Shown here: piece by piece, positions 1-23,813 of the stretch
Layout of the letters: every line of letters starts with the position of its first letter
Numbering within the stretch: the stretch's first letter is position 1
From: Fidelibacterota bacterium
GTDB lineage: Bacteria > Fidelibacterota > Marinisomatia > Marinisomatales > S15-B10
Assembly (NCBI GenBank): GCA_046861655.1
Contig: JBHIAI010000013.1
Location: 1 to 25,264 of the forward strand
Direction of reading: 5' to 3'
DNA length: 25,264 bases
Translations under genes and position numbers: made by a program
The notes under the pieces: model-generated
What the model was told of the DNA's origin: nothing
Databases searched by the model: none
The model's input: only the letters and a program-made list of their open reading frames with translations

Positions 1-1158
1 GCAGACTCCCTTGTTGTCGAATTCTATGTGAGTGGGACCCAATCCGGCGTCTATGTCCCGGGAGACATAGGTCTTATCGATGATTCTTACGCCGAATTCT
101 TCCCCTGTGAACCGTTTTTCGGCGATGGCCTGTCTCACCTTTGTGTAATCGACCATCCTGACGATAGTCGTGGCTTTTCCCCCCACCACAGCGTATCTCC
201 CTGTGGGCGATACATCCACACCGTGAGGGTTCAAAGGACACGGAACGGCATAGACTTCCACATCCCTCCATGAAATAACGGGCACGTCGGGCGCTTCCTT
301 GGTCGTAATGTACTTGCCCTCCTTCACCGCCTGACGGATGCTCTCGATATTCCAGAAGAAAATGTAGTCCTCCGGTCTTTGGAACATCCCCACGACATTC
401 GTGGATCTTTCTGTATTGTAAGCGGTGTTGACAAGCCACCCGTCCATCTCACCCCAGCCCACGCGAACCATGTCGAATTGCCAGGGACCCCACACCTGCC
501 AGGCCGTTTTCATGGTGCCATCCTCTGCGATGTCAACTCCCGTAAGGCAGGAAGCATACGGACCCTTTATTTCATCGATGTCAATGTTGAGGTATTCCCG
601 TATCTCCCTGGCGGGATACTGTTCCAGTTCGATGTTCGCTACGAGCAGGTCCGTGTTGGGACCCACGTGAGCGCCATGGATTCCCCCCTTCACGTTGGGT
701 AGCCAGATGATCTCAGCCGTGCGAAAGGTGGAAAGATCTATCCGGGCCATCCGGGCGTAGGTCTTGTCGTTGATGAAGAGCCATCGGCCGTCGTAGACGC
801 CGTCGGTCTTGCTGATGGCAGGATGGTGGGTATCGCCAGACTGTACCACCTCCCCGGTCCTGGGATTCGTTAACAGTTTCTTGACAAACGGGTTGGACAG
901 GGTCCACCCTGTGGCCGCCGTCGGTTCAAACACGGGGATTTCCTGCAATAGCTTCATGGACGGGATGCTGTAAACGTAAAGCCCACCCTGCTGTCCCCCA
1001 CTGGCGAAAACGTAGAATTCGTCGTTTTTCTGCCAGAACTGGTGGGGCATGGGATAGACTCTCTGGTATGGGTTCACTCCGGACTGTTTCTTCGGGCCAC
1101 AACCGACAAAGAACAGGCCACTCAGTACCAATAGTCCGGCTGTTTTTGTCCACTTCAT
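1..1158 (-). CDS. nosZ: Nitrous oxide reductase (NosZ family), divergent, Sec/lipoprotein signal; N-terminal beta-propeller part only, 3' end runs off the window
   Basis: Manually translated (not in ORF track): ATG at 1158 preceded by AAGGAGG; 386 codons open to position 1. MKWTKTAGLLVLSGLFFVGC (lipobox)...DEFYVFASGGQQGGLYVYSIPSMKLLQEIPVF...GDTHHPAISKTDGVYDGRWLFINDK...ARIDL...GGIHG...YNTE...NPHGVDVSPTG...GLGPTHIEFD. The five CuZ-type His expected in this part are present (H111, H112, H161, H312, H377). Confidence 0.92.
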   Translation of the reverse strand, partial: MKWTKTAGLLVLSGLFFVGCGPKKQSGVNPYQRVYPMPHQFWQKNDEFYVFASGGQQGGLYVYSIPSMKLLQEIPVFEPTAATGWTLSNPFVKKLLTNPRTGEVVQSGDTHHPAISKTDGVYDGRWLFINDKTYARMARIDLSTFRTAEIIWLPNVKGGIHGAHVGPNTDLLVANIELEQYPAREIREYLNIDIDEIKGPYASCLTGVDIAEDGTMKTAWQVWGPWQFDMVRVGWGEMDGWLVNTAYNTERSTNVVGMFQRPEDYIFFWNIESIRQAVKEGKYITTKEAPDVPVISWRDVEVYAVPCPLNPHGVDVSPTGRYAVVGGKATTIVRMVDYTKVRQAIAEKRFTGEEFGVRIIDKTYVSRDIDAGLGPTHIEFDNKGVC

Positions 1159-1194
1159 TTCTGCCTCCTTGTGATTCAATCCATAGACTGCTTC

Positions 1195-1710
1195 TCAAAC
1201 AGCCTCAACAATCAATTTGCCCCGCATCTGGTAGTGGGCCAGACTGCAGAAAACCGTGCATTCGATGGCGAATTCTCCCGGAACGGTGGCTTTGAACGTA
1301 ATCTCCTTTACCACATTCGACCGCAGGCCCGTGACCCAAATGTCGTAGGGGCCCAGAACGTGGAATCCGTGTCCGCTGAACTCTTTCAATCCCGTGATTT
1401 TCGGGAGGTCGCCGTCGTCGCCCCCTTTCAGGACAAGCTTCACGACCTGATTCTGTTTCACACGAATCACGTTCGGTTTGTACTCGGATGTGACCACATC
1501 GATAGTGATGGTGACGTCCGGGTTTCCCAGCGGGTTGGCGGGCTGCCTTGACGGTTCGGAAATCCTCGCGTACGGTCCTGACCATCGTTTCGTCCCGGGG
1601 ACAAACTCTTCTGTTTGAGCCAGCCAGCCGTCCCGTGTACAGGAAATGATACCCAGAAGCAGAATCATCACCACGGTTCCTCGGGCCGCTTTCTCCATCA
1701 TGCTATACAC
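1195..1710 (-). CDS. CuA-type cupredoxin lipoprotein (start may be ATG 1701)
   Basis: Signal peptide ending in lipobox IISC; HGF...CTVFCSLAHYQM = H...CxxxCxxxHxxM CuA ligand set; overlaps/abuts the SCO stop codon. Confidence 0.85.
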   Translation of the reverse strand: MYSMMEKAARGTVVMILLLGIISCTRDGWLAQTEEFVPGTKRWSGPYARISEPSRQPANPLGNPDVTITIDVVTSEYKPNVIRVKQNQVVKLVLKGGDDGDLPKITGLKEFSGHGFHVLGPYDIWVTGLRSNVVKEITFKATVPGEFAIECTVFCSLAHYQMRGKLIVEAV

Positions 1711-2380
1711 CCCCTTCCTGAAGCAAATGCTTGATGTCTTTGACGATTACCTCCTGCGGGTCCACCAATCCGATATACCGGTACCGGACGTTTTCATTCC
1801 TGTCTATCAGGGTCACCATGTAGCTGTGATAGACAAGATCCACACTTCTTTTTTCCTTCACGAAGACCCTGTATGCGTCCCAAACCTCTTGCAGTTCGGA
1901 TTCGCTCCCCGTCAGGAAACGCCACTTCCCTCCAAATCCCCTGGTGTATGCCTTGATCCTCTCCGGAGTGTCCCTTCTCGGGTCGGTAGTGATGAATATC
2001 AACACCAGGTCTTTTTCCACAATATCATTGAACTCCCGCTGAATATGACGGAAGTGCTGAGTCAACAATCCGCAAACATCCGGACAGCTGGTATAGATGA
2101 ATCCGATCAAAACAAGCTTCCCGTCAAAATCGCTTAGCTGGGTGACACCGTTGTCCATATCGGTGAGTGTGAAGTCGAAGGCCTTCCGGGGTTCCAAAAG
2201 TTCAATCCTTCTCACCACCTGTTTCCCGGCGACCTCGGGGTTTTCCAGGGCAGGATGTTCAAAGGTGAAAGTCTCGTTCTCACCTTCCCGGAATTGCTGC
2301 AGGGCCCTGAAGGCCAGAATGAGGACGATAACGACACCGATGACGATCAGGAGATTGAGCCGCGGTTTCATCCCTCGCAC
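1703..2380 (-). CDS. SCO1/SenC/PrrC family copper chaperone, N-terminal membrane anchor
   Basis: DFTLTD...GKLVLIGFIYTSCPDVC (CxxxC), TTDPRRDTPE, downstream His in VYHSYMVTLID; hydrophobic N-terminus. Start GTG 2380 or ATG 2371. Confidence 0.93.
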   Translation of the reverse strand: MRGMKPRLNLLIVIGVVIVLILAFRALQQFREGENETFTFEHPALENPEVAGKQVVRRIELLEPRKAFDFTLTDMDNGVTQLSDFDGKLVLIGFIYTSCPDVCGLLTQHFRHIQREFNDIVEKDLVLIFITTDPRRDTPERIKAYTRGFGGKWRFLTGSESELQEVWDAYRVFVKEKRSVDLVYHSYMVTLIDRNENVRYRYIGLVDPQEVIVKDIKHLLQEGGV

Positions 2381-2764
2381 CTATTCAACAACAACTTCCC
2401 CTTTCATCAGCATATGGTGGTCGCTGCACCACACGGAACAATAGAAAGGAAATCTCCCCTGTACGTCCGGAGTAAACGTTACCCTTTCGACCTCTCCCGC
2501 TTTTACTTCCCTCACCATGATGTCGAAGGCGGGAAGATAGAAGCCGTGCGATACCACGTCAACGTTCCTGATGACGATTCTCACTTTCTCACCCCTGGTC
2601 ACCTGGATGGTCTGGGGAAACCAATTGCCCTTGATGGGTTCGCGAGCGAGGAGTTCGACTGTGTCGGGACTCTCCCGGCTCGACTCATAAGCGAAAACTG
2701 CCCAGAGGGTTCCCAGGGAAACCAGGAGAACCAGAACGACGGCGGCAGTTTCCTGAGCACGCAT
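2381..2764 (-). CDS. Small membrane-anchored CuA-type cupredoxin (127 aa)
   Basis: Start reassigned to ATG 2764 (MRAQETAAVVLVLL..., 5 nt after the upstream stop). DVVSHGF...FYCSVWCSDHHMLMKG = CuA ligand set. Confidence 0.85.
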   Translation of the reverse strand: MRAQETAAVVLVLLVSLGTLWAVFAYESSRESPDTVELLAREPIKGNWFPQTIQVTRGEKVRIVIRNVDVVSHGFYLPAFDIMVREVKAGEVERVTFTPDVQGRFPFYCSVWCSDHHMLMKGEVVVE

Positions 2765-2769
2765 AGGAA

Positions 2770-4641
2770 CTAGGCTACAAACAGACGAACGAAGAAAATG
2801 TGGAGGCCCACGAGAAACGCGACCATGGGAATCCAACCCCTTTTTGCCTCCGCCACCGTGGCATACGTTTGCCTGGAAAACTTGAATCCGTAGTCAAGGG
2901 CAAACATCAATCCGACGATAACCAGGGACACCTGGAGGTAGGGCATTGCCCCGGTCAAAACGGGCGTCCACGGATACTTTGCCGTTCCAAACAGGTTCCA
3001 GCCCCACCCGAAAGGGTCGGATAGAATGTGGAGGAGATAGCTGCCATTGGGCAGGATAATACCGATGCTGAAGGCGCCCCATACCGCAAGGCCAACGGGA
3101 ACAAGACAGTACGAGAAGTTGACGAATGCATCTTTGATCTTGACCTCCTGGTTCTTGCTCAGTTTTCTGGACAGGTACACGAACAGGAGAAATACTGCGG
3201 GGATGAAAAGAAAATCAACGAATGTAGCTTCCGCAAGATAGCTGATATATCCACCCAATGTGGTGGCTCTGACCATATCCTTGAATTCGCCAGCGGGACT
3301 CTGGAACGCTCTGAAGAAGACCAGGAAAATCCCGAGCATGGTCAACGCCTTGAAGGCTTCATCCAACCCCCGCCTTCGAAATTTTCTGTCGGTAGGTTTC
3401 CGCTCAGCGAGGAAGTCGGCACCGAACGGCCTCAGGTTCAACGCCATATTATCGTAAGGACACGTCTTGAAACACTCCATGCACATTCCGCAGTACGTAT
3501 TGCGATTTATGTCGTAGGGCTGCTCCATCCAGGGGCAGCCGTACCCCTTTTCATTCCCCACGACACATGTTTTCGGCTTGTGCTCCTTGCAGATATCCGG
3601 ATCTTTCACGCGAACTTCACAGAGGGAAAAATTCGAATAAAGACCCTGAAACCCGCTTACGGGGCACAGAAAAAGGCAGAAGGTCCGCTTTCCGTAGATG
3701 GCGGCCACGATCGTTGCTGCTCCGATGATGAAGGACAAAAGAAGAAAGGTGGCGAAGGGTCTCACTGTGAAGAAACCGGAAAACCAGGTTGCGACGAAAA
3801 AAAGGATAACCAGGGGCCAGAGATTCCTTACTTCGTTGGGCCATCTCTTATTGAGTCCCCATGACTTCTGGCGTCCCACCTTGATCAGTTTTCCTCGCTG
3901 CAGCCAGTCGCCGAAAAGGGGAAATGGACAGACCATACACCAAAGGCGTCCGATGACAGGAACCATAACAATCATGAGGAGAACCCACCAGAGAATCCAG
4001 ACGATCATGATCCCGAAATTGTAGTTGCCTGCTGAGAGACCGCCCACGAAACCTGCCAGGAGAATGACGGCAAACACGAATAGATTGATGATGATCGGGA
4101 CAAAGGGAAACCACCTGCTCTTGAGTAAGGCGCGAACGGGTCTGTACCGGGTAAGCTCGAATCTTAAGTTCAGCGGTATGAAGCCAAACAACCTGTCGGA
4201 CCCAGCGGGATTGGGGTTCCCCCTTTTCCTGAACGACAGACCCAGGGAACCCAGACCGATGAATGCCACAAGGAAAACGCTGGCATAATACCTGGTGTTG
4301 GGCAGAACCTTCAAATATCCCACCATGTACGGGTGAAACTCCCCGCAAGTTTTTGAACAGCGGAACGTAAACTTCCCGGTCTTGTCAGCGTTGATAACGA
4401 CTTCCCTGGTTTCGCCGGGATTGACGAAGAATTCTGTCCCGTAGCCATCGAGGAAGAATCCGTGGGTGACGTCCTGGCTGATGAGTTTTATGATGAGCCT
4501 GTCGCCCTTACTGGCGGTGATGACGCTCGGGGAATAGGCAAACCGTTTTGCCCTGAGTTCGATGTGCTTGTCCCTGGCGGTGGAGGGTTCCGGGGCGCTC
4601 AGCCCCAGGACAATCACCACTGCCCACAGAATCCTTCTCAC
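2770..4641 (-). CDS. CuA-cupredoxin domain fused to NapH/NosH/MauN-like multi-pass membrane polyferredoxin
   Basis: Likely GTG start 4641 (GTGA overlap with upstream stop, GGGAGA SD). Signal peptide; DVTHGF...CSKTCGEFHPYM; then TM helices with two CxxxCP motifs (WCMVCP, FCLFLCP), CKEHKPKTC...GYGCPW and YCGMCMECFKTCP; further C-terminal TM helices. Confidence 0.85.
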   Translation of the reverse strand: MRRILWAVVIVLGLSAPEPSTARDKHIELRAKRFAYSPSVITASKGDRLIIKLISQDVTHGFFLDGYGTEFFVNPGETREVVINADKTGKFTFRCSKTCGEFHPYMVGYLKVLPNTRYYASVFLVAFIGLGSLGLSFRKRGNPNPAGSDRLFGFIPLNLRFELTRYRPVRALLKSRWFPFVPIIINLFVFAVILLAGFVGGLSAGNYNFGIMIVWILWWVLLMIVMVPVIGRLWCMVCPFPLFGDWLQRGKLIKVGRQKSWGLNKRWPNEVRNLWPLVILFFVATWFSGFFTVRPFATFLLLSFIIGAATIVAAIYGKRTFCLFLCPVSGFQGLYSNFSLCEVRVKDPDICKEHKPKTCVVGNEKGYGCPWMEQPYDINRNTYCGMCMECFKTCPYDNMALNLRPFGADFLAERKPTDRKFRRRGLDEAFKALTMLGIFLVFFRAFQSPAGEFKDMVRATTLGGYISYLAEATFVDFLFIPAVFLLFVYLSRKLSKNQEVKIKDAFVNFSYCLVPVGLAVWGAFSIGIILPNGSYLLHILSDPFGWGWNLFGTAKYPWTPVLTGAMPYLQVSLVIVGLMFALDYGFKFSRQTYATVAEAKRGWIPMVAFLVGLHIFFVRLFVA

Positions 4642-5393
4642 GGTTTCTCCCAACTTAGTTTCCGTAGGATCGCGATAGATTTCCTGGAAAAACTTTCCAT
4701 TCTTCCCCCATCCCAGAGGGCGAAGGCAACGTTGAGGCTTGTCCCCGGCTCGAACTCAAACTCCTCTCCCTGATTGCTATCAAGCCGTCTTTTGAACATA
4801 ACCGACCATTTGCCGTCCCTGTAGTCCCCTTTCCCTTCCACATTCTGTCTTGCCATGGGAGTTTGGGTTCCGGGACCGTGAGCGGTTAGTTCACGGACGG
4901 GGTTCGTCGACGTGTTGCCTTTCAGGTACCGCTCCACATTCCTGTCCGCCAGCCATTGCCAGACATTCGCCTTGTCCCCATACCCCATCATCTGGGCGGT
5001 GGCCGGTGCCTCGGCAAGGGCAAACATTATGGCACAGGCATCGGGATTCACAGGAGGTCCAAGATCCTCGGTTTTGTCGTTGAACTCCAGGAGGAAAGCC
5101 ACCTCTTTCCCGTTGTATGCCGCCCTGACCCAAATATCTTTTTCCTCGTTTCCGTAGGGTGACCTTGCCGATTGAGGATACAGGCGTATCTTCTCGGGTT
5201 CAATACCGTTCCAAAAGGGAGCATGGGGATCAAGATCGAATTCTTTGCCCACGTGAGCAACTGTGAGATTGTCCTTAGTTTCTATTTTCTCCCATTTCAG
5301 GTAAATCATGCGGTACAGGACAGCAAAGTAGACTCCCGCCAGGACAAGGGTGACCGCCAGGGTGTATGAAAGGGTCCTGTGGTGTCTTTTCAT
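4638..5393 (-). CDS. Ethylbenzene dehydrogenase gamma-subunit-like (EB_dh / DOMON) heme-b protein with N-terminal anchor (251 aa)
   Basis: Start reassigned to ATG 5393 (MKRHHRTLSY...) to remove the overlap with rrf2. Motifs VRAAYNGKEVAFLLEFNDKTED, PDACAIMF, QMMG...NVWQW, YRDGKWSVMFKRRL, VAFALWDGG...RKS are typical of EB_dh domains. Confidence 0.8.
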   Translation of the reverse strand: MKRHHRTLSYTLAVTLVLAGVYFAVLYRMIYLKWEKIETKDNLTVAHVGKEFDLDPHAPFWNGIEPEKIRLYPQSARSPYGNEEKDIWVRAAYNGKEVAFLLEFNDKTEDLGPPVNPDACAIMFALAEAPATAQMMGYGDKANVWQWLADRNVERYLKGNTSTNPVRELTAHGPGTQTPMARQNVEGKGDYRDGKWSVMFKRRLDSNQGEEFEFEPGTSLNVAFALWDGGRMESFSRKSIAILRKLSWEKP

Positions 5394-5403
5394 CTGTGAC
5401 CTG

Positions 5404-5883
5404 TCAGCCCCCGCTGTCTGAGTCAACATCCAATTCTCCAGTGTGCATGGAGGCGATGTAATCGAGCTTGGTCTGGATTTCATCACTCAACTCCGTTACC
5501 GGAGTATCCCGTAGCATCTGAATGATGATTTTTTTTGCCGAACTCCACAGGGGGTGCAGTGGACACGGATTCTCGTCCTGACACCCGGGAAATCCAACGA
5601 CACAGTAGTCGAGAAACGATTCACCATCCACGATCTTGGCCACCCGTAAAAGGGATATTTCCTCTGGAGGCTGGCTGAGGAGAAAGCCCCCCGCTTTCCC
5701 TTTCTGGGAGACGACTATGCCATGGCGGGCCAGTTGCTGAAGGATTTTCCCGAGGAAATGGTTTGGGATGTCCAGTGCCTCGGCAATATCTCTCTGCAAT
5801 ATGGGGGTGTCCGGCTGTTGAGCAGCCAGATAGATGACGGACTGAATCGCGTATTGACAGGCCTTGCTGAACAAAACAGACAT
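5404..5883 (-). CDS. Rrf2 family transcriptional regulator with Fe-S ligand motif
   Basis: FSKACQYAIQSVIYLA...IAEALDIPNHFLGKILQQL...SQKGKAGGF (Rrf2 wHTH); CVVGFPGCQDENPCPLH (Cx6Cx5Cx2H). Confidence 0.95.
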   Translation of the reverse strand: MSVLFSKACQYAIQSVIYLAAQQPDTPILQRDIAEALDIPNHFLGKILQQLARHGIVVSQKGKAGGFLLSQPPEEISLLRVAKIVDGESFLDYCVVGFPGCQDENPCPLHPLWSSAKKIIIQMLRDTPVTELSDEIQTKLDYIASMHTGELDVDSDSGG

Positions 5884-5897
5884 AAGAAAAGTTTAAG

Positions 5898-5925
5898 TCA
5901 GACAATCAGACCCGATTGTCTGATT
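5898..5925. promoter_or_regulatory. Palindromic operator (putative Rrf2 site) over the predicted transcription start
   Basis: Perfect inverted repeats TCAGACAATC-N6-GATTGTCTGA (5898-5923) and overlapping AATCAGAC-N6-GTCTGATT (5904-5925), immediately downstream of the -10 box. Confidence 0.7.
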
Positions 5926-5926
5926 A

Positions 5927-5956
5927 ATTATACAAAAAAATCCTGAACCATGGCAA
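5927..5956 (-). promoter_or_regulatory. sigma70-type promoter for rrf2-nos cluster
   Basis: Minus strand TTGCCA (5956-5951) - 18 bp - TATAAT (5932-5927) in an AT-rich intergenic gap. Confidence 0.7.
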
Positions 5957-5996: not shown

Positions 5997-6839
5997 TCAA
6001 AAAACCTGGGAAAAAGGAGACAAAAAGGCTCCTGTGGCCAGTGTACCGAATACGAGAGCGTGGGCCAATTCCGTAAACCCAAAACGTGTTACGTGTAAAG
6101 AATCCTTGTCCTGCCACCGGAAAACACCGGTGAATACCTTTAGCACGAAAGGTCCGTACGCTGCGACAAACAGCCAGGAGGTCCCCTGGACCAGGGTGAT
6201 TCCCGACACAACGGCCAGGACGACAAGACTGTGAACGAGGGAAGGAAGACCGGGCCGGAATCTCCCCAGAACCGGGGGTCTGGTGGTGGAAGGCTGAACC
6301 CTGAGCTTCAGCTTTACGTAGTGTACACTTCCCGCAAAGTAAAGAAAATTGATGAGCCAAAGAAACCATCCCAGAGGATCCAGCGTCCCCTGAACGAAGA
6401 CGTAAGTCAACGGACCGGCGGCGGTCAACCCGAACACACCCATCATCTCTCCCCGTGTGGACATATGTCTGCGGTGCAAGGTCATCCTTAGGTGCAGCCC
6501 GAAGGTTGCCCCCACCAGGATTCCCAGGAGAAATCCAATCCAGACGTGGTGAATGGCCAAGAGTATGACCACGGTTCCCGCCCCTGAGCCTCCCAGGATC
6601 AGGGTCCAGACCAGGGAAGAGGGATCCACGCTCCTCCTGGACCCCCAGGCCCGCACTACCTGTCCGGCGGGACGGTGGGACAGAAACACCAGGACATAGG
6701 CCCCTGCGAGGACAGGCGATGACCAGTTCCACGGCCGGGCCACCGCAAGAGCCATGAAGGTGGGTATCAGGAACATGGCCCAGGCGCCGTGCTGCCTGGG
6801 AACAGGAAAGGGCCCTAACCGGTATGCTATCGTTCCCAC
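5997..6839 (-). CDS. YwiC-like family membrane protein
   Basis: N-terminal PRQHGAWAMFLIP signature, multiple TM helices, LYFAGSVHYVK and FGFTEL motifs; GTG start overlaps the end of pduO. Confidence 0.82.
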   Translation of the reverse strand: MGTIAYRLGPFPVPRQHGAWAMFLIPTFMALAVARPWNWSSPVLAGAYVLVFLSHRPAGQVVRAWGSRRSVDPSSLVWTLILGGSGAGTVVILLAIHHVWIGFLLGILVGATFGLHLRMTLHRRHMSTRGEMMGVFGLTAAGPLTYVFVQGTLDPLGWFLWLINFLYFAGSVHYVKLKLRVQPSTTRPPVLGRFRPGLPSLVHSLVVLAVVSGITLVQGTSWLFVAAYGPFVLKVFTGVFRWQDKDSLHVTRFGFTELAHALVFGTLATGAFLSPFSQVF

Positions 6840-7366
6840 ATTCTTTCCTCACCGCCATCTTTCATGTTCTGGTACCTGGCGGCGACGAAAAGAAAGTCGG
6901 ACAATCGATTCACGTAGGAGAGGGTGACCTCGCTGATGGGCTCAGACTTGTTCAGAGTTACAAGATTCCGCTCCGCCCTCCGGCAGACGGATCTTGCGTG
7001 GTGAAGTTGGGCCGACACGGGGGATCCTCCCGGCAGAACAAATTCCTTCAAGGGGGGCAAAGATTCGTTCCAGCCGTCCAGGGTCCTTTCCAGCCAGTCC
7101 ACGTCATCTTGGGATATCAGATGCATTTTCCGGTCCTTCACCGCCAGCTCTCCTCCCAGATTGAACAGGGTGTTTTGAACTCGCCGAAGGGGTTCGGTCA
7201 GATCTCCTGCAGCGCTGTGGGCCAGGGCAACCCCGATGGAGGAACTGATCTCATCCAGGGAACCAAGCACCCGGATCCGCGGCGAGTCTTTGTCTACCCG
7301 TTCCCCCCTGGCCAGAGAGGTCGTACCATCATCGCCGGTCCGGGTGTATACTTTGGTGATTCTCAC
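6827..7366 (-). CDS. pduO: PduO-type ATP:cob(I)alamin adenosyltransferase (179 aa)
   Basis: True start GTG 7366 (GTGA overlap with nuoN stop; GGAGG SD): VRITKVYTRTGDDGTTSL...RVDKDSPRI...GSLDE...QNTLFNLGGELA...FVLPGG...ARSVCRRAER...YVNRLSDFLFVAARY. Confidence 0.95.
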   Translation of the reverse strand: MRITKVYTRTGDDGTTSLARGERVDKDSPRIRVLGSLDEISSSIGVALAHSAAGDLTEPLRRVQNTLFNLGGELAVKDRKMHLISQDDVDWLERTLDGWNESLPPLKEFVLPGGSPVSAQLHHARSVCRRAERNLVTLNKSEPISEVTLSYVNRLSDFLFVAARYQNMKDGGEERMWER

Positions 7367-8817
7367 AGAAAAACCTCCGCTGCTTTCATGGCTCCGGTCA
7401 GCAGCAAGCTGGGGTTCACGCCTAATCCGATGACAACCGCTGCCAGAACCGCCAGAAGGAAGGCCGTCTTGCGCAGGACGAATGTGGGCAAGGCAACCTC
7501 CTCTTCCTCCATATACATCTGAACGATGATGCGCACGTAATAGTATACGGAAATCAGGGTTGTTAGGACAGCAATGACCGTAAGCCAGATGTACCCCTGG
7601 TGTACCGCGGCTGAGAAAACCGCATACTTGGCCACAAACCCTGCCGTGGGGGGAAATCCCGCCAGTGAAATCATGAACAGGGCAAGACACGCGGCCAGCC
7701 ACGGATGCCGGGAAGCCAGTCCCCTGTAGTCGTTCAAGTTCACCCCCCTTTCCCCCTTCTCTACCAGGGAAATCCCGGCGAAGGCACCGAAATTCATGGC
7801 ACAATAGACAGCCAGATAGAAAAGAACTCCGGATACTCCCCCTTCGTCCAGGACCACCACGCCCATAAGAAGATATCCGGCATGGGCCACACTGGAAAAG
7901 GCCAGCATACGCTTCACGTTGGATTGCAAAAGGGCGCTCACGTTCCCCACGACCATGGTGAGAGCAGCGAGGACCCAGAGCAGATCCTGCCAGGCACCCA
8001 CCCGGTCCGGGAAGGCTACCAGCAAGACCTTTATGAGAGTCCCGAAACCCGCTGCCTTGGGGGCGGTAGCCAGAAAGGCCGTTACAGTCGTCGGTGCCCC
8101 CTGGTACACATCCGGAGACCACATGTGAAAGGGCACCAGGGCAACCTTGAAGGCAAACCCGATGAGCACAAGCCCTATCCCCAGTGACAGAATCGTTCCC
8201 GACAGAATCTTTCCTGCAGAAAGAGCCGCCGCGATCTGGTCAAAGTTTGTGCTGCCTGTGGCTCCAAAGACCAGGGCGGCTCCGAATACAAAGAACCCGG
8301 TAGTGAAGGCTCCCAGAAGAAGATACTTAACGCCCCCTTCGTTGCTCGCAGCATCATGACGAAGGAATCCGATGAGGACGTACAGGGACAAGGACAGCAG
8401 TTCCAGGCCCAGAAAGACCATGACCAGGTCGTTGGCCCGGGTCATGAACATCATGCCCATGGTGGCAAACAGGGTGAGGGCGTAGTACTCACCCCTCAGT
8501 TCCCCCTCTTTTCGTTCCAGATACCTCTGGGCCACGAGCAGGGCGGCCGTCCCTACCCCAAGATAGAGCAGGTCGAAGAAGGCCGTATAGCTGCTCAACG
8601 AGAGCATCCCGCTGAAGAGAACCTGCTCCTGACCGAAGGTCCTGACCACGAAGTATGCGGCCCCTGCGTATCCGGCCAGACCCACAGGCAGCATGATCCG
8701 CCTCAAGGATCTTGACACCATCTCCAGGGTCAGAATGGCGAGGCAGGTCGCCAGAAGAACGATCTCTGGAAGAATCCCCCTGAAATCCGACGCCCCCGGG
8801 ATAAAGATAACGTCCAT
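7363..8817 (-). CDS. nuoN: NADH-quinone oxidoreductase subunit N (second operon)
   Basis: LGLELLSLSLYVL, EGGVKYLLLGA, FKVALVPFHMWSPDVYQGAPT, QSNVKRMLAFSSVAHAGY, SLAGFPPTAGFVAK. Confidence 0.96.
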   Translation of the reverse strand: MDVIFIPGASDFRGILPEIVLLATCLAILTLEMVSRSLRRIMLPVGLAGYAGAAYFVVRTFGQEQVLFSGMLSLSSYTAFFDLLYLGVGTAALLVAQRYLERKEGELRGEYYALTLFATMGMMFMTRANDLVMVFLGLELLSLSLYVLIGFLRHDAASNEGGVKYLLLGAFTTGFFVFGAALVFGATGSTNFDQIAAALSAGKILSGTILSLGIGLVLIGFAFKVALVPFHMWSPDVYQGAPTTVTAFLATAPKAAGFGTLIKVLLVAFPDRVGAWQDLLWVLAALTMVVGNVSALLQSNVKRMLAFSSVAHAGYLLMGVVVLDEGGVSGVLFYLAVYCAMNFGAFAGISLVEKGERGVNLNDYRGLASRHPWLAACLALFMISLAGFPPTAGFVAKYAVFSAAVHQGYIWLTVIAVLTTLISVYYYVRIIVQMYMEEEEVALPTFVLRKTAFLLAVLAAVVIGLGVNPSLLLTGAMKAAEVFL

Positions 8818-8839
8818 CTTATCTCAATTGAACCTGGAC

Positions 8840-8941
8840 AATGAAGAATACAGAATGGAGAGTGCAAAATGGAAGATGCAGAATGCAACGTGCAAAACTG
8901 TCCCCAGTTCTCCAGTACTCCATTACTCCATCTCTCCATTT
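8840..8941. repeat. Adjacent degenerate tandem arrays: 8 x 7-mer (AATGCAR-like) and 5 x 8-mer (CTCCAKTW-like)
   Basis: 8840-8895: AATGAAG AATACAG AATGGAG AGTGCAA AATGGAA GATGCAG AATGCAA CGTGCAA; 8902-8941: CCCCAGTT CTCCAGTA CTCCATTA CTCCATCT CTCCATTT. Confidence 0.85.
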
Positions 8942-8948
8942 TCCCCCG

Positions 8949-10322
8949 TCACAAGAAAAACACCCATGTGACCAGCACAAAAATGGGAATCAAAATGGGC
9001 AGAGAGTATTTCACCATGTACCCGAAGAAACTGGGCATGGGGATGTCCATTTCCCGGGCGATGGATCTCACCATAAAGTTTGGGGCGTTTCCCACATACG
9101 TATTCGCTCCCATGAATACGGCCCCGGCGGAAATGGCCAACAGAGTTCCCGCCAGGTCGGTCATGAGAAGGTTGGGGTCTCCCCCTGCCGTGTTGAAAAA
9201 CACCAGGTAAGTGGGAGCGTTGTCAAGAAAGCTCGATAGAGCGCCCGTGGTCCAGAAATAGGTGGCATTTACGGGGTTTCCCTCGGGTGTGGACACCGCC
9301 CCGATGATGGCCCTGAGGGCACCGTGCTCTCCAGCCCTCAGGATGGCGATCGCTGGAATGATGGTGACGAAAATGCCGGCGAAGAGTTTTGCCACCTCCA
9401 CGATGGGAAACCAGCTGAACTCGTTTCTTTCCCGAATCTCCCGGGCCGTCACCTTCCAGCTCACGTAGGCAAAAAACAGAAGGAGCACATCCCTCATCAA
9501 GTCCTGCAGATGGATCTCCACGTGGTAAACTTCGAAGGAAACCGGGGAATGCCACAATCCGCTCAACAACACAGAACCGATGGCACCCAGCAGGATCAAC
9601 AGGTTTATGCCTCCCTCCATCCCTAGTTTCTCGGGGTTATCCCCGTTCTCCCCGGGGTCGGGCCTGTTCGTTTCCCGTCTGTAATAGTAGGTGTCGACAG
9701 CATAGAATACCACCCAGAGAATACCGATCACCAGGAGCATAGGTTCAAGCATGGCCCTGGTGGTCCAGAAAAAATCGATCCCGTTCAGAAACCCCAGGAA
9801 AAGGGGGGGATCGCCCAGGGGGGTCAGGGAACCGCCGATATTGGCAACCAGAAAGATGAAGAAAATCACAACATGAACATTCTTCTCCCGCCACCGGTTG
9901 GCACGGATGATGGGGCGTACAAGAAGCATGGCGGCGCCCGTGGTCCCCATCCAGCTGGCCAGAACCGTTCCCACCACCAGGATGGCAAGATTCAGAGGAG
10001 GAGTCCCCGTCAAGGATCCGGTGATTCTCACTCCTCCCGCGATCGTGAACAGGGCCAGAAGCAGGATGATGAAGGGGACGTACTCAAGGAGCCCCACGTC
10101 AACCAGTTCAAAAACCACCACATCCAAACCGTACTTGAGGCTCATGGGAACAATCAACACCGCTGCCCAAAAGGCCGCTACTTTGCCGTAGTGGCGATGC
10201 CAGAACCGGGGAGCCAGCAGGGGCAAGACGGCGATGGAAAGAAGTATGCAGAGAAAGGGAATCACCCAGGGAAGCCCCAGCACTGAACCGTCCATGTGAG
10301 GGATATCCACAGGATGCTCCAT
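8949..10322 (-). CDS. IT-superfamily (ArsB/NhaD-like, CitMHS_2-type) putative Na+/H+ antiporter or anion transporter
   Basis: Many TM helices; ASWMGTTGAAMLL, ANIGGSLTPLGDPPLFLGF, LSSFLDNAPTY, GAVFMGANTYVGNAPNFMV motifs; ATG directly follows the nuoM TGA. Confidence 0.85.
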   Translation of the reverse strand: MEHPVDIPHMDGSVLGLPWVIPFLCILLSIAVLPLLAPRFWHRHYGKVAAFWAAVLIVPMSLKYGLDVVVFELVDVGLLEYVPFIILLLALFTIAGGVRITGSLTGTPPLNLAILVVGTVLASWMGTTGAAMLLVRPIIRANRWREKNVHVVIFFIFLVANIGGSLTPLGDPPLFLGFLNGIDFFWTTRAMLEPMLLVIGILWVVFYAVDTYYYRRETNRPDPGENGDNPEKLGMEGGINLLILLGAIGSVLLSGLWHSPVSFEVYHVEIHLQDLMRDVLLLFFAYVSWKVTAREIRERNEFSWFPIVEVAKLFAGIFVTIIPAIAILRAGEHGALRAIIGAVSTPEGNPVNATYFWTTGALSSFLDNAPTYLVFFNTAGGDPNLLMTDLAGTLLAISAGAVFMGANTYVGNAPNFMVRSIAREMDIPMPSFFGYMVKYSLPILIPIFVLVTWVFFL

Positions 10323-11870
10323 TCAATCGCCTCCCGGGACCGTCATCGTCCACACCGGATCATTCTCACCGGACCGGTCTACCGCCATCTCGACCTGACG
10401 GACCAGCCTGTCCACTGACGGTTCAATCTTCTCCAGAAAGGGCTTGGGATAAACACCGAGCCACACGATGGCCAGAACAAGGGGAATCACCGCCGCCCAT
10501 TCCCTGGGGACCAGGTCCACCAGTTTGGCATTCTCCTCCCGGGTGACGGGTCCAAAAAACACCCGTTCCACAAGCCAAAGAAGGTAAACAGCGGCCAGGA
10601 CCACCCCCAGGGTGGCCAGGACCACCGCCACCGGATGAACGGGAAAGGACCCCAGAAGAATGAGGAATTCTCCCACGAAGCCGTTCAGGCCCGGCAGTCC
10701 AAGGGAAGCCAGGGCCACCACGATAAAGAGGGCGCTGTAGGCAGGGATCACCTTTGCAAGGCCCCCGAAATCCTGGATCATCCGCGTGTGGCGTCGGTCA
10801 TACAGCATGCCAACAAGGAGAAACAGGGCACCGGTAGAGAGACCGTGGTTAACCATCTGAATGATGCCCCCGGAAATGCTCTTGGAGGTGAGGGAAAAGA
10901 TGCCCAGGACCACGAATCCCAGGTGACTCACGCTTGAGAAGGCCACCAAACGTTTTATGTCGGGTTGGATCATGGCCATGAGAGCACCGTAGATAATCCC
11001 AAACACAGAAAGAAAGATGATCACCGGTACCAGAGGGGGAATGGCAAGAGGAAAGAGGGGAACGCAGAACCTGACCAGACCGTACGCCCCCATTTTCAAC
11101 AGGATCCCTGCCAGGATGATGGATCCCGCGGTGGGAGCATCGGAATGGGCATCGGGAAGCCAGGTGTGAAAGGGGAACAACGGCACCTTGATGGCAAAAC
11201 TGAGGGCAAAAGCCAGAAAAAGCAGGGTCTGGACCTTGCGGGAGATCACAAGATCTTGAAGGGTCTCATAATCCAGGGTGGGAGAGCCAAACTGAGAGGT
11301 GGTGAGTGTATAGAGGTAGATGATCCCCACAAGCATCAGGAGGGACCCCAGCATGGTAAACAGGATGAACTTGACGGCTGAATATATCCTCCTGTCCGTT
11401 CCCCACACTCCGATGATAAGGGTCATGGGAATGAGCACGGCTTCCCAGAAGATGTAAAACAGGAATAGATTGATGGAGGAGAACACCCCAACCAGGGCCC
11501 CTTCCGTGATGAGAAGGGAAACCATGAATCCCTTAACTCCCCTGGTGATGCAATCCCATGAACACAGGACCGTAACCGGACCGAGGAACGTCGTGAGAAG
11601 GATGAGAAGCAAACTGATGCCGTCGACCCCCACCGAATAGTTGATCGCCCATTCCGGAATCCATGGAACCTGCTGGACAAACTGAAAGTCGCTGGTCGAT
11701 TCAAACCGGACGGTCATGATGACACAAAGGCCGAGTTCAAGAACGGTAATGGCAACCGCAATCCACTTCGCCACGCTCCCGTGGCGGGAAGGGACGGCTG
11801 CGCACAACAGGGCCCCCGCCACAGGCAGGAGGATAAGCACCGTCAGACTGTGGTCGATTACCCAGGTCAT
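10323..11870 (-). CDS. nuoM: NADH-quinone oxidoreductase subunit M (second operon)
   Basis: GVDGISL, FYIFWEAVLIP, KVPLFPFHTWLPDAHSDAPTAGS, LLKMGAYG, QMVNHGL, LGLPGLNGFVGEF. Confidence 0.97.
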   Translation of the reverse strand: MTWVIDHSLTVLILLPVAGALLCAAVPSRHGSVAKWIAVAITVLELGLCVIMTVRFESTSDFQFVQQVPWIPEWAINYSVGVDGISLLLILLTTFLGPVTVLCSWDCITRGVKGFMVSLLITEGALVGVFSSINLFLFYIFWEAVLIPMTLIIGVWGTDRRIYSAVKFILFTMLGSLLMLVGIIYLYTLTTSQFGSPTLDYETLQDLVISRKVQTLLFLAFALSFAIKVPLFPFHTWLPDAHSDAPTAGSIILAGILLKMGAYGLVRFCVPLFPLAIPPLVPVIIFLSVFGIIYGALMAMIQPDIKRLVAFSSVSHLGFVVLGIFSLTSKSISGGIIQMVNHGLSTGALFLLVGMLYDRRHTRMIQDFGGLAKVIPAYSALFIVVALASLGLPGLNGFVGEFLILLGSFPVHPVAVVLATLGVVLAAVYLLWLVERVFFGPVTREENAKLVDLVPREWAAVIPLVLAIVWLGVYPKPFLEKIEPSVDRLVRQVEMAVDRSGENDPVWTMTVPGGD

Positions 11871-13774
11871 CTCAGGAAAAGATAGAAGATCATCAGAACC
11901 ACCCCTGCCAGAAAAACGACCGCATAGGTTTGAACGACTCCGGTTTGCACCCGCCGGAGTCTTCCTGACAGCGCTCCCATGAATTTCCCTGAACCGTTCA
12001 CCAGTCCGTCAACGACCCGAATATCAAACGCCCTCCACACCCATTCGCTGGATCTTCGCACAGGTTGCACAAACAGGACGTCGTAAATCTCGTCCACGTA
12101 GTATTTCCTGGACACCAGGGTATGGAGCACCGTGAACCTGCCGGCGACTTTTCCAGGAAGGTCGGGACGTCTCTGGTAAAGAAAAAAGGCCAGTCCGATG
12201 CCTGCCGCAGCCGCCACGATAGAGAACATCATCACCATCCATTGGGGAGTCAGGGTCTCCCTTCCCAGGGCGATGACCAGCCCGGCTCCATCGGGGGCCG
12301 AATGGTGAACGAACTCACGAAACGGGTTGCCCAACCCCAGGAATTCAGGGAGGCCCACGTACCCCCCGAATACCGCCAGAAGGGCAAGAGTGATCAGAGG
12401 GGCGGTCATGACCGGACGGGCGTCGCGGGGCGCAGTCTCCCGGTCCCAGCGGGCCTGACCATGGAAGGTCAGGAACAACAAACGGAACATGTACAGGGCG
12501 GTAAGGACAGCTGTTGCCAATCCCAGGAGGTACAGGAATCTCCCGGTCCCTTGCCAGGCGTAGAGACTCCACAGGATTTCATCCTTTGAGAAGAATCCGG
12601 ACAGGAGTGGAACACCGGAAATGGCCCCTACACCTGCCAGCATGGACAGGTATGTTCGGGGCATGGAAGACTTGAGGTCGCCCATTTTCCTCATGTCCTG
12701 GTGTCCTCCCAGGGCATGAATGACCGAGCCTGCCCCGAGAAACAAGGTGGCCTTGAAGAAGGCGTGGGTCACCAGGTGAAACAGTCCCGCCGCGTAGGCT
12801 CCCATCCCCACGGCGGTGATCATGGTTCCTAACTGGCTTATGGTGGAATAAGCCAGCACTTTCTTGATATCATTTTCCGTCACTGCCATAGTAGCCGCGA
12901 GAAAGGCCGTGACCGTCCCCACGATGGTGATCACCGCGACGGTGACGGCCGAAGCGGAAAAAAGAACACCCAGCCGTGCGATCAGATAGACACCGCCCGT
13001 CACCATGGTGGCGGCATGGATCAGGGCACTCACGGGCGTGGGACCGGCCATGGCGTCGGGGAGCCAGACATACAGGGGGATCTGGGCCGATTTTCCTACC
13101 GCACCCAGGAACAGCAAAAGGCCCATGGCAGTGACGATCTGGGGTCGCAGCAGGGCGATCCTTTCCGGGACGAGGATTTCTGAGAATTCAAGGGATCCAA
13201 ACCGGGAGAATATGAGAAACATGGCCAGAAGGAATCCCGCGTCCCCCACGCGGTTTACGATGAACGCTTTCTTTCCCGCCGCTGCCTTTTCCCGGTCCTC
13301 GAACCAGTGACCGATCAGCAGGTATGAGCAGAGGCCGACCCCTTCCCATCCTACGAACAGGAGGACCAGATTGTCTGCCATCACCAGGGTCAGCATCATG
13401 AAAGTGAACAGGTTCAGAAACGCGAAATACCGCTGAAAGCCCCGGTCCCCTTTCATGTAGCCCATAGAGTAGACATGAATCAGGCATCCCACCCCCGTCA
13501 CCACCAGGACCATGATCAGCGAAACCGAATCGAGAAGGTAGGAGACGGAGATCTGGAGGTCTCCTACCCACAGCCAGGTGAAAAGCGATTGACGAAGAGG
13601 TTCGTGGGTGTTCAGGACGCTTCCGAATAGAATCGTTCCCAGCACAAAGCTCAACCCCACGGAAACGGACCCAATCAAGCCCGAGGCTTTCTCGCTCAAT
13701 CTCTTTCCCAAGAGTCCATTGAGCAGAAAGCCCGCCAGGGGAAATCCCGGGATCAGCCAGATCACAGAATCCAT
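11867..13774 (-). CDS. nuoL: NADH-quinone oxidoreductase subunit L
   Basis: GWEGVGLCSYLLIG, KAFIVNRVGD, GKSAQIPLYVWLPDAMAGPTPVSALIHAATMV, HAFFKA, KYYVDEIY. Confidence 0.97.
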   Translation of the reverse strand: MDSVIWLIPGFPLAGFLLNGLLGKRLSEKASGLIGSVSVGLSFVLGTILFGSVLNTHEPLRQSLFTWLWVGDLQISVSYLLDSVSLIMVLVVTGVGCLIHVYSMGYMKGDRGFQRYFAFLNLFTFMMLTLVMADNLVLLFVGWEGVGLCSYLLIGHWFEDREKAAAGKKAFIVNRVGDAGFLLAMFLIFSRFGSLEFSEILVPERIALLRPQIVTAMGLLLFLGAVGKSAQIPLYVWLPDAMAGPTPVSALIHAATMVTGGVYLIARLGVLFSASAVTVAVITIVGTVTAFLAATMAVTENDIKKVLAYSTISQLGTMITAVGMGAYAAGLFHLVTHAFFKATLFLGAGSVIHALGGHQDMRKMGDLKSSMPRTYLSMLAGVGAISGVPLLSGFFSKDEILWSLYAWQGTGRFLYLLGLATAVLTALYMFRLLFLTFHGQARWDRETAPRDARPVMTAPLITLALLAVFGGYVGLPEFLGLGNPFREFVHHSAPDGAGLVIALGRETLTPQWMVMMFSIVAAAAGIGLAFFLYQRRPDLPGKVAGRFTVLHTLVSRKYYVDEIYDVLFVQPVRRSSEWVWRAFDIRVVDGLVNGSGKFMGALSGRLRRVQTGVVQTYAVVFLAGVVLMIFYLFLR

Positions 13775-13775
13775 G

Positions 13776-14081
13776 TCAATCCTTCAACAGGCTAATTTCA
13801 TCTATGGTGATGGTGCGCCGGTTGCGGAACAGGGCCACGATGATACCGAGACCTACCGCTACCTCGGCAGCCGCCAGAGTCATCACGAGAAACACGAACA
13901 CCTGGCCGCTGACGCTGTCGTAATACCGGGAGAAGGCCACCAGGGCCAGGTTGGCGGCATTGAGCATCAGTTCGATGGACATGAAGATGACAATAGCGTT
14001 CCTGCGAAACAGCACTCCCAGGACGCCGATGGAAAACAGCAAACCGCTCAAGGCGATGACCTGTTCCAGAGGGACGGTCAT
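13776..14081 (-). CDS. nuoK: NADH-quinone oxidoreductase subunit K
   Basis: [33 protein letters not shown]. Confidence 0.97.
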
Positions 14082-14581
14082 GAAACCTTCCTTTTTGCCA
14101 GATACACGGTTCCGATGAGAGCCACCAAAAGAAGCAGGGAAGCGACTTCAAACGGGAAGAGGTAGGTGGAAAACAGGACTTCCCCCACCGCGGTCACACT
14201 TCCGGACGTGATGGATTCCCCGGGGGAATGAGGGATATCCATCCCCTGGATGAGGAATATGGTAACGCCGGAAAAGAAAAGGAGAATAAGAAAAAGAGAA
14301 AAGACCCTTTGAACGGTGATCAGCTTTGGAACGGCTTCCTCCCTGCCCACATTGAGCAACATGATAACGAACAGGAAAAGGACCATGATGGCCCCGGCGT
14401 AGATGAGGATTTCCAGTACGGCCAGGAAATAGGCCTCCAGAAGTAGGTACAGAACGGAAAGGGAGAAAAAGGTACCCACCAGAAAGATAGCGCTGTGGAC
14501 GGGATTCTTGTTGAGAACGACCAGGAGTGCGCACACAAGGGTGACAACCGAGGCGATGTTGAACAGAAGGTCAGGCGACAT
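14078..14581 (-). CDS. nuoJ: NADH-quinone oxidoreductase subunit J
   Basis: [43 protein letters not shown]. Confidence 0.96.
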
Positions 14582-14604
14582 ACGCGATCCAGGCGTGGGA
14601 TATC

Positions 14605-15135
14605 TTAATCGTTTTCAGAGACTCCCTCCGGCACCTTCCCCGATGGTGTTTTGTAGTAGTTTTCCCCCTTGGTCAGTTCATAGACCGCCAGCAATCCTTC
14701 CTTGTCAATCCAGAGGCCTTCCCGGGTATGGTGAGAGAAGTCGTAGATTTCGGTCAATTCGATGGCTTCCTCGGGGCAGGCGATTTCACAGAATCCGCAG
14801 AAGATACACCGCAACAGATCAATATCGAAACGAACGGGATACCTCTCCTTTCCCTCCTCCCAGGGAGAGGGACCGGGCACGATATGGATACAGTGGGCCG
14901 GACAAGCGGCCGCGCACATGTCACAGGCCACGCACCGAATGCGCCCGTCCTCATACTTGTTCAGACGATGGAGGCCTCTGTACCCTTCCGGGGGTACGTG
15001 CTTTTCCTCAGGGTATTGGACAGTGACAGATCTTCTGACCAGGTGCTTGAAGGTGACCACGAGGCCTCTGAAAAGGGCGGGCAGGTACAGCTTGTCCCAG
15101 AAGGATGGTTCGTAGGATTTGACGATCGTCCCCAT
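14605..15135 (-). CDS. nuoI: NADH-quinone oxidoreductase subunit I
   Basis: TVQYPEE...YRGLH; CVACDMCAAACP and CIFCGFCEIACP (2x[4Fe-4S]). Confidence 0.96.
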   Translation of the reverse strand: MGTIVKSYEPSFWDKLYLPALFRGLVVTFKHLVRRSVTVQYPEEKHVPPEGYRGLHRLNKYEDGRIRCVACDMCAAACPAHCIHIVPGPSPWEEGKERYPVRFDIDLLRCIFCGFCEIACPEEAIELTEIYDFSHHTREGLWIDKEGLLAVYELTKGENYYKTPSGKVPEGVSEND

Positions 15136-15139
15136 GGTT

Positions 15140-17793: not shown

Positions 17794-17799
17794 GGCGCG

Positions 17800-19119: not shown

Positions 19120-19607
19120 AAGAGGGAACCCAGCAGAGAGTCGAACTCTTCCAGAGTCAGGCTTTCGTGATAGTCGTTATTGACCTGTACCACGGGCGCC
19201 GTGCCGCAGGAACCCAGGCATTCCACCTTCCGGAGGGTAATCTTGCCATCAGACGTGGTTTCCCCTGGCCGTATTCCCAGCTTCATGCAGGCATGATCAA
19301 CCAGGGCATCGGCACCGTTGAGGCTGCAGGAAAGTGTCTGGCAGATTTGAACCCTGGCCCTCCCCTGCGGTTCCCGATGAAACAGGGTATAGAAAGATAC
19401 CACGTCTATGATCTCGGCCGGATGACATCCCACGATTCCGGCCACCGCTTCCACAACACCCCTGGAGATGTATCCCAGCTGATCCTGGGCCAGATGAAGG
19501 AGCGGGAGAGTGGCGGACCGCCGGTCCGGATAGAGGGATACCATCCGCTCCACCCTGGAGGGGTTTTCAAACTCGAACCGACCGTCGTCGCCGGATGACG
19601 CTGTCAC
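19116..19607 (-). CDS. nuoE: NADH-quinone oxidoreductase subunit E
   Basis: LPLLHLAQ..GYI, VVSFYTLF, CQTLSC...ECLGSC [2Fe-2S] motif. Confidence 0.96.
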   Translation of the reverse strand: MTASSGDDGRFEFENPSRVERMVSLYPDRRSATLPLLHLAQDQLGYISRGVVEAVAGIVGCHPAEIIDVVSFYTLFHREPQGRARVQICQTLSCSLNGADALVDHACMKLGIRPGETTSDGKITLRKVECLGSCGTAPVVQVNNDYHESLTLEEFDSLLGSLL

Positions 19608-21330: not shown

Positions 21331-21407
21331 TTAGGTGGCGGGAGCGTGGAAGTAGGAGTGCAGGGTTCGAACAGAATCGAATCTACAAGCCAAAAGATGA
21401 GGCGATT

Positions 21408-22234: not shown

Positions 22235-22313
22235 GATTCAGCAGTTTGATCGCCCTCTTCCAACCCCAATGGATCCGGTTTTCCCTTGGACGGCCTTACC
22301 AGGTCGGAGGAAT

Positions 22314-23807: not shown

Positions 23808-23813
23808 GGGGCT

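Follow-up and report, generated by a model that had tools for sequence, protein, structure and literature searches.

To our knowledge, nitrous oxide reductase (N2OR, encoded by nosZ) is the sole biological sink of nitrous oxide (N2O). The described enzymes are compared here as three clades. Clade I enzymes are exported by the Tat pathway and are served by NosR/NosX (profile TIGR04244). Clade II enzymes, the type of Wolinella and of Bacteroidota and Fidelibacterota, are Sec-dependent (TIGR04246), and the lactonase-type L-NosZ proteins make up clade III (NF052460). Clade III does without nosDFYL according to the accessible part of PMC13685413, and a lake-sediment paper (PMC13477213) agrees that these enzymes reduce N2O without nosDFYL. 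How the copper-sulfur cluster CuZ is assembled, and above all where its sulfide comes from, is described as still open in that part of PMC13685413. Here we analyze a stretch of 25,264 nucleotides, called the window below, which is the entire contig C171 (JBHIAI010000013.1) of the Fidelibacterota metagenome-assembled genome (MAG) G000 (2.06 Mb, 92.8% complete). Its first 5,956 nucleotides carry the 5′ part of an operon for a separate lineage of N2O reductase, which we call NosZ*. Judging from sequence comparison, we consider it rather probable that this operon is controlled by Rrf2 and encodes a deep-lineage N2O reductase that is matured without NosDFYL.

The nosZ* gene of G000 is distributed over two contigs. 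The N-terminal 386 amino acids are encoded at positions 1–1158 of the window (minus strand), where the gene is cut by the contig end; this half is of the lipoprotein type and holds five of the seven CuZ histidines. The remainder lies on contig C150 (positions 1–2860), where a nosB homologue and a gene for a transglutaminase-TlpA fusion are also located. We infer the join of the two contigs from the complementary ranges covered in the nosZ profile (10–349 by the window part, 354–578 by the C150 part), from the orthologues in G001 and G033, in which nosZ is contiguous (75–80% identity) and followed by genes of the same kinds, and from two read-derived contigs, X2 and X3, which extend beyond window position 1. 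The initial approximately 11 codons of C150 do not align with the relatives. C150 encodes the other two CuZ histidines, and the joined protein retains all seven, besides the CuA site and the Lys/Glu pair. The window half has a lipobox-like cysteine and a Sec-type N-terminus with no Tat motif, as read by eye.

The homologue search returned, among the matches listed, at least 82 proteins with 47–92% identity, after which identity falls to 41% or less; the closest relatives are in records named Fidelibacterota. We aligned 70 near-full-length NosZ* relatives and assigned residue equivalences to known N2OR. All 15 CuZ, CuA, Lys, Glu and Trp positions are kept in 61 of the 70 proteins. The CuA site (H, C, C, H, M) is kept throughout (70/70), as is the second-sphere pair Lys397/Glu435 (70/70), whose role in N2OR is described in the accessible part of PMC13685413. 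A structural model of P0001, which is 79% identical to the window half, has a pLDDT of 90 and matches solved N2ORs with TM scores (by query) of 0.77–0.80 and E values of 1e-52 to 1e-48 as a seven-bladed propeller plus cupredoxin. By ligands and fold the G000 protein belongs to the NosZ family; a copper-sulfur cluster and the reduction of N2O to N2 are predicted from the alignment and the model. In the ESM Atlas we found general NosZ clusters only. Two copies of nosZ* are interrupted, one by an in-frame stop (L035:5213-7174) and one by a frame break (L073:416-2353), either through assembly error or as pseudogenes.

All seven full-length NosZ* proteins that were scored stay below the cut-offs of the curated profiles: they score 430–520 bits with TIGR04246 (cut-off 625), 312–384 bits with TIGR04244 (cut-off 625) and 77–149 bits with NF052460 (cut-off 700). 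Three canonical NosZ controls reach 905–912 bits, and the clade III reference P0213, which branches apart from NosZ*, reaches 914 bits on NF052460. In a quick IQ-TREE run with 79 rows NosZ* is held together with a support of 100. It joins a single sister sequence, P0121, with equal support; the stem is long, and the lineage falls outside both the sampled clade II (98) and clade I plus III (99). Clade II forms one side of a branch that excludes NosZ* (SH-aLRT 98 and 99 in two trees), where many clade II labels were taken from the score gap and not from a row-by-row scan. The groups were unchanged in the second tree, from which 31 long or redundant rows had been removed. When NosZ* was constrained to group with clade II rows of the Bacillota/Acidobacteriota type, the p-AU was 0.016; this is the sole nesting tested and the group was picked after the first tree. 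Mean identity is 36.9% between NosZ* and clade II, 33.4% between NosZ* and clade I, and 38.1% between clades I and II.

In its working the NosZ* system is most like clade II, with which it shares Sec-type export, the propeller plus CuA fold, a downstream nosB, an Rrf2 gene nearby as in the canonical Fidelibacterota clusters, and a polyferredoxin homologous to NosH. It differs by its low identity, its separate branch and its scores, and no nosD, nosL, nosY or NosG was found; a stand-alone CuA protein (CuA3), an SCO protein and TlpA/CcdA proteins are present instead. With clade I it has the CuZ ligands, the Lys/Glu pair and the CuA motif WFC..LH.EM in common, but neither a Tat signal nor nosR. 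It resembles clade III in the absence of nosDFYL, whereas the protein of about 640 amino acids has the canonical propeller and sits on a different branch. The neighbours of clade III are b-type cytochromes and MacB-type ABC parts, those of NosZ* are CuA3, SCO, NosB, TlpA and CcdA. The system fits none of the three clades, and the sequence-only reading, which had placed it outside clade I and typical clade II, was right in this respect.

For the maturation genes we searched 29 genomes: 21 of the lineage (20 with NosZ*, one with the sister) and eight controls with canonical NosZ. NosD scores above the cut-off in seven of the eight controls, with G059 being the one canonical genome that has no match, and in two lineage genomes (G048 and G057), where it adjoins a second, canonical nosZ in both cases. 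The profile search did not find NosD in any of the 19 genomes in which this lineage is the only nosZ. NosL was detected in one of the 21 lineage genomes (G057, a clade I carrier) against five of the eight controls. None of the 44 lineage loci searched was matched by any of five queries for NosD, three for NosY and three for NosL, and in G000 canonical NosD, NosY and NosL queries found nothing. The NosY query with one protein has a low sensitivity (it matched in one of 21 genomes and missed the canonical cluster of G048) and carries little weight. The absence of NosDFYL is read from NosD, NosY and NosL; NosF is unsuited as ABC ATPases are generic. More weight attaches to the long lineage loci, in which other genes occupy the usual position of nosD. 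No nosR is seen in the lineage gene maps, and downstream of nosZ* we found no nosR, nosGH, nosC or nosDFYL set.

The neighbourhood of the enzyme was scored in 43 loci (one duplicate was removed, near-duplicates remain). CuA3 lies directly upstream of nosZ* in all 30 loci with at least 600 bp of upstream sequence, and NosB is downstream in 36 of 38 loci. SCO is present in 17/17 loci with long flanks; a TG-TlpA or a CcdA/DsbD-like membrane protein is found in 16 of these (17 with L038), and PCuAC and an ArsP-type permease are frequent. After nosZ*, contig C150 encodes the fusion of a transglutaminase-like domain with a TlpA thioredoxin, then a membrane protein of 182 aa, and lastly an unrelated sensor kinase. 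The membrane protein is 29% identical to canonical NosB (E = 1e-11), and the order nosZ, TG-TlpA, nosB is contiguous in G001, G033 and G186. The Cys-His-Asp triad of the transglutaminase-like domain is invariant in 10/10 sequences. Sco, PCuAC, TlpA and CcdA are the CuA assembly set of heme-copper oxidases. The same protein families occur in the NosZ* operons, where they adjoin a NosZ-type enzyme in place of NosDFYL and where their role in CuZ assembly is putative. SCO, TlpA or CcdA, PCuAC and NosB likely act as the substitutes in copper delivery.

The part of the operon within the window comprises seven open reading frames, all on the minus strand within positions 1–5883. In order, profiles assign them to Rrf2, an EB_dh/DOMON heme-b protein, a cupredoxin with Fer4_5, a cupredoxin, SCO1, a cupredoxin and NosZ. 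With gene starts picked from ribosome sites and orthologues, the intergenic spacings are 10 bp, a 4-bp overlap, 5 bp, 0 or 9 bp, 1 or 4 bp, and 36 bp. A sigma-70-type promoter, TTGCCA-18-TATAAT, is located at 5927–5956 on the minus strand and agrees with the consensus in 11 of 12 positions. It is the best of seven sites found (shuffle mean 3.8 sites), and L035 and L036 have similar hexamers ahead of their Rrf2 orthologues. The −10 box is closely followed on its 3′ side by a perfect inverted repeat at 5898–5923 with 10-nt arms and a 6-nt spacer. Of three orthologous Rrf2 loci, L036 and L034 have the motif in the corresponding position, and in L035 it is weaker. The repeat is likely the operator of the Rrf2-family regulator (5404–5883, minus strand; PF02082, E = 2e-28), which has a putative Fe-S motif C-x6-C-x5-C-x2-H. 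A scan of six window proteins and the CuA2 translation detected no CxxCH heme-c motif. The sequence-only reading had described seven co-directional genes with gaps or overlaps of at most about 36 bp behind one promoter and lacking CxxCH, and all of this is borne out. Its statement that there is no nosB-like gene holds for the window and fails for the operon, whose nosB homologue is on C150.

It had also counted three full CuA ligand sets besides nosZ, and these can be located residue by residue (all on the minus strand). The first belongs to an exported cupredoxin (H60/C95/C99/H103/M106) fused to a NapH/NosH/CcoG-like membrane polyferredoxin of about 9–10 helices (2770–4641; PF13473 and PF12801, TIGR02163 weak). 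The second is CuA2, a membrane-anchored cupredoxin of 127 aa at 2381–2764 (profile and ligand motif; H73/C109/C113/H117/M120). The third is CuA3, a cupredoxin lipoprotein at 1195–1701 (C148/C152/H156/M159 and an upstream His), whose CuA ligands are unchanged in 27/27 sequences. Going by these motifs, the three stand-alone or fused domains have the full CuA ligand set on a cupredoxin fold. The distance from His to Cys is 35–37 residues in the window CuA proteins, as in NosZ. The whole 2.06-Mb genome has eight CxxxCxxxHxxM motifs among 16,111 stop-to-stop frames, three of them in these 6 kb. Between CuA2 and CuA3 lies the SCO1/SenC copper chaperone with the motif CPDVC (1703–2380, minus strand; start at 2380 or 2371; PF02630, E = 7e-29).

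The remaining member of this group is a membrane-anchored heme-b protein of the EbdC/NxrC DOMON type with one N-terminal helix (4638–5393, minus strand; PF09459, E = 4e-29). It scores 102.6 bits against a cut-off of 33.3 and stays below the cut-off of the subfamily TIGR03477. A Met and a Lys align with the residues of EbdC (2IVF_C) that we take to be its heme ligands. The EbdC/NxrC subunits share these ligands, but the operon has no molybdoenzyme partner. The polyferredoxin part of the fusion is 24% identical to NosH (E = 2.5e-5) and scores 19.9 bits with TIGR02163, below the cut-off of 213. Like NapH, NosH and CcoG it has CxxxCP motifs (two of them) and a cluster of ferredoxin-like Cys, predicted to be on the cytoplasmic side; it differs from these by the exported CuA domain, by additional C-terminal helices and by the lack of NapG. 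From hydropathy and charge the CuA domain is placed outside, with 12 Cys in inside loops. The model of the fusion has a pLDDT of 67, and solved structures match the CuA domain only and not the membrane part. An alignment of relatives revealed no conserved heme-ligating His in the helices, and the NosG query matched nothing in the lineage loci.

The sequence-only reading had taken the polyferredoxin-CuA fusion, the heme-b protein and the small CuA proteins as a “copper wire” to NosZ that defines the architecture. The block of DOMON, fusion and CuA2 genes is indeed syntenic with NosZ* in several phyla, and the claim that the system has its own SCO is substantiated by the long-flank loci. Yet the wire is an exchangeable donor block and not a defining feature. 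In Planctomycetota its place is taken by two SCO genes and one for a diheme cytochrome c, and Chloroflexota loci have neither the block nor the diheme cytochrome. In locus L056 the block lies downstream of nirS/nirF-like and napA genes. The fusion, CuA2 and the heme-b protein probably carry membrane electrons. The direct path that had been proposed, from quinol via the membrane protein to CuA, is uncertain in its first step, since the predicted topology places CuA outside and the Fe-S cysteines inside, a NapG partner is missing and CcoG, to which the fusion is related, acts as a cupric reductase.

We suggest that the system could operate as follows. N2O would be reduced at the seven-histidine CuZ site of the membrane-tethered enzyme. 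Electrons would reach the CuA site of NosZ* from the adjoining CuA3, standing in for cytochrome c or pseudoazurin, and CuA3 in turn would be fed by the exchangeable upstream block. In G000 the quinol pool would be tapped by the heme-b DOMON protein together with CuA2 and the polyferredoxin-CuA fusion; other taxa would have the diheme cytochrome c in their stead. Copper might be delivered by SCO together with a thiol-reducing TlpA or CcdA/DsbD protein, often with PCuAC or an ArsP-type permease and with NosB helping. For the sulfide of CuZ we can name as candidates the Cys-His-Asp transglutaminase-like protein and the lineage-specific His/Met residues. The predicted complex of CuA3 and NosZ* scored 0.32 and the best control 0.00, with at least 26% of the contacts shared and a partner pLDDT of at least 72. 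The individual runs disagree (0.32, 0.73 and 0.04), and although the score mark is reached by 116 of 157 solved and two of 215 mismatched pairs, passes at or below 0.60 are more often wrong than right. The prediction weakly supports a CuA3–NosZ* complex.

Several observations weigh against this interpretation. Sco, TlpA and PCuAC have known roles for CuA and CuB, not for CuZ. The CuZ ligands are altered in nine of the 70 relatives: two have a His-to-Tyr exchange and seven have lost one to five of the CuZ histidines. As these seven keep CuA, the scaffold can evidently persist without CuZ. Completeness is known for four of the sole carriers (93–94%), and several of them are kin and not independent. 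The branch dividing NosZ* from clade II is short and next to a long stem, and the rank of the lineage is therefore provisional. As for the donor block, five of the 18 loci that extend 4.5 kb or more upstream have DOMON, CuA-polyferredoxin and CuA2 together (two shorter ones in part), and genome G181 (96% complete), in which no NosZ was found, carries the fused form at the end of a contig. A split CuA / NapH-like / CuA cassette of about 40% identity is also encountered without nosZ (C35, L094-L098, L100), which speaks against the block being exclusive to nosZ. Finally, N2ORs of clades I and II do not form CuZ when nosD, nosF or nosY is missing, according to the accessible part of PMC13685413.

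The histidine-losing relatives are P0061, P0066, P0069, P0073, P0074, P0077 and P0078 (alignment A1); they keep CuA, Lys and Glu. Longest contigs of equal length (P0037/P0066, P0007/P0014) give a hint that altered copies may stand beside intact ones. The second operon without nosZ (G000:C35, that is L011, L094-L098 and L100) encodes a two-component system, a porin-like protein with CxxCH, a cupredoxin-like protein, CuA, a NapH-like protein and CuA, in part fused to cytochrome c. In L095/L097 an Fe-S flavoprotein, a Rieske protein, cytochrome b and a multiheme cytochrome are added.

NosZ* could instead be an N2OR scaffold with a different copper site, for example sulfide-free or of lower nuclearity, which acts on another substrate such as O2, NO or peroxide, or a copper store or electron carrier. 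The lack of NosDFYL, the oxidase-like accessory set and the sub-branch without CuZ histidines would all fit. So would the sequence changes in NosZ*: about 17 positions conserved across clades I and II are replaced, including an Ala-to-Glu exchange within the CuA loop, and seven extra His/Met positions are conserved in this lineage, which may reflect copper uptake or a changed site. We nevertheless think this rather unlikely because the seven His, the Lys and the Glu are kept in the 61 relatives across about 45–80% identity, NosB is retained in nearly all loci and one locus lies within a nap/nir island. It is also conceivable, if quite improbable in our view, that the enzyme is a true N2OR while the upstream genes handle copper. 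The fusion would then be a cupric reductase like CcoG (so described in the accessible part of PMC8267372), with which it has CxxxCP and a cytoplasmic Fe-S pattern in common, and the CuA proteins would be copper donors or buffers replacing NosL and NosD, with the electrons coming from elsewhere. The missing NapG partner, the lack of heme-ligating His in the helices and the location of SCO in the middle of the block agree with such a role, and for the fusion it is a live rival. But CuA is established as an electron-transfer site, a heme-b DOMON protein is part of the block and a diheme cytochrome c takes the equal position in other taxa; the split cassette, too, adjoins Rieske, cytochrome b and multiheme genes in the longer loci.

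Could NosZ* be an ordinary, divergent clade II system in which nosDFYL was missed through gaps in the MAGs or through divergence? Every genome is a fragmented MAG, control G059 lacks NosD likewise, the NosY query overlooked the canonical cluster of G048, and the clade II model always gives the highest curated score. Yet the NosD model, silent in all 19 sole carriers, detects clusters of the Thermaerobacter, Proteobacteria and Fidelibacterota types, the nosD positions of long loci are filled by other genes, and in the trees a branch with support 98–99 sets clade II apart from NosZ*. This explanation therefore appears very improbable, and we prefer an N2O reductase matured without NosDFYL.

NosZ* is found in Fidelibacterota, Planctomycetota, Spirochaetota, Acidobacteriota, Chloroflexota (SAR202, Dehalococcoidia, Anaerolineae) and at least one archaeal MAG. 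In the host phylum 39 of 301 sampled genomes have NosZ, four of them the NosZ* type, and this patchy occurrence suggests lateral spread. The sister lineage (G058, L103/L104; 91–94% identical to P0121) also lacks NosD and has the same layout with Rrf2, a diheme cytochrome c, SCO, CuA3, nosZ, nosB and a CcdA-like gene. NosZ* is possibly a fourth lineage of N2OR. The broader claim is that this fourth lineage spread laterally among these taxa, builds CuZ without the NosDFY motor by oxidase-type Sco/TlpA/CcdA chaperones, and uses a dedicated stand-alone CuA donor and, in the present sub-lineage, an operon-encoded chain between membrane and enzyme that is free of cytochrome c; to this whole we give a little less than even credence. 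The archaeal MAG (G050, “uncultured archaeon”, binning taken as given) contributes L044 and L105 with the order CuA3-nosZ*-nosB-CcdA-like-SCO and a GC content of 27–30% in these loci; a search for archaeal amoA matched neither G050 nor the controls and is therefore uninformative. NosZ* and a canonical nosZ with nosD occur in one genome in G048 (L083) and G057 (L085), and this suggests separate roles or conditions for the two enzymes.

Our literature search, with most subscription papers outside its reach, did not find a description of this architecture, nor is it described in the accessible parts of PMC11409646, PMC12569097, PMC11148229, PMC10732223 and PMC10936187. NosZG7, a divergent NosZ branch of a cold-seep gene catalogue (n = 27, canonical structure; accessible part of PMC11828985), may be this lineage, a comparison made without motifs, taxa or gene context for NosZG7. 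The “nosZ-like” proteins of DPANN do not belong here as CuZ is missing in them, according to the part of PMC10936187 that we could consult. Expression of SAR202 nosZ, of this or another type, is reported from a hypoxic zone (PMC5596340).

The host genome G000 has a Nar/Nxr-like molybdoenzyme and aa3-type oxidase genes. We did not find nirS or nirK in G000; a match to the NirK model on C106 (80 bits, cut-off 296) looks like a multicopper oxidase. Cytochrome cd1 had no match in this genome, and the NrfA family gave weak matches only. The combination fits a non-denitrifying N2O reducer, and the enzyme might act as an N2O sink of this kind in G000. Contig C112 (L013, 1–3800) carries an Rrf2 gene, a diheme-DOMON fusion and a Tat-exported, Nar/Nxr-like enzyme of the type II DMSO-reductase family, which is cut by the contig end. 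The window itself was found in four listed runs, all of them hydrothermal-vent metagenomes from a single study; contigs from three of the four span every one of the 30 bins and differ from it by single bases only. Between nuoN and the nos promoter, at 5997–7366 (minus strand), lie genes for a cobalamin adenosyltransferase of the PduO type and for a YwiC-like protein of the membrane. A membrane protein similar to the latter is also near the nos block in L071 and ahead of the second cassette in L096. The rest of the window (7363–25257, minus strand) is taken up by nuo genes. In the nuoA-N set a gene for a CitMHS-like transporter separates nuoM from nuoN, and NuoG is short (541 aa); an additional nuoM/nuoN pair lies upstream (22314–25257).

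Several NCBI entries name NosZ* “hypothetical” or “cupredoxin domain-containing”, while JGI calls others nitrous-oxide reductase. With scores below the cut-offs and such inconsistent names, surveys either miss NosZ* or count it unproven. An enzyme of canonical fold with intact ligands and no NosDFYL is a natural experiment on the factors that CuZ needs, and the compact operon can be expressed to learn which of them are required. A stand-alone CuA protein as dedicated electron donor would, if true, be unusual. If NosZ* is inactive, it inflates nosZ counts; if it is active, vents, groundwater and seas poor in oxygen hold additional N2O sinks.

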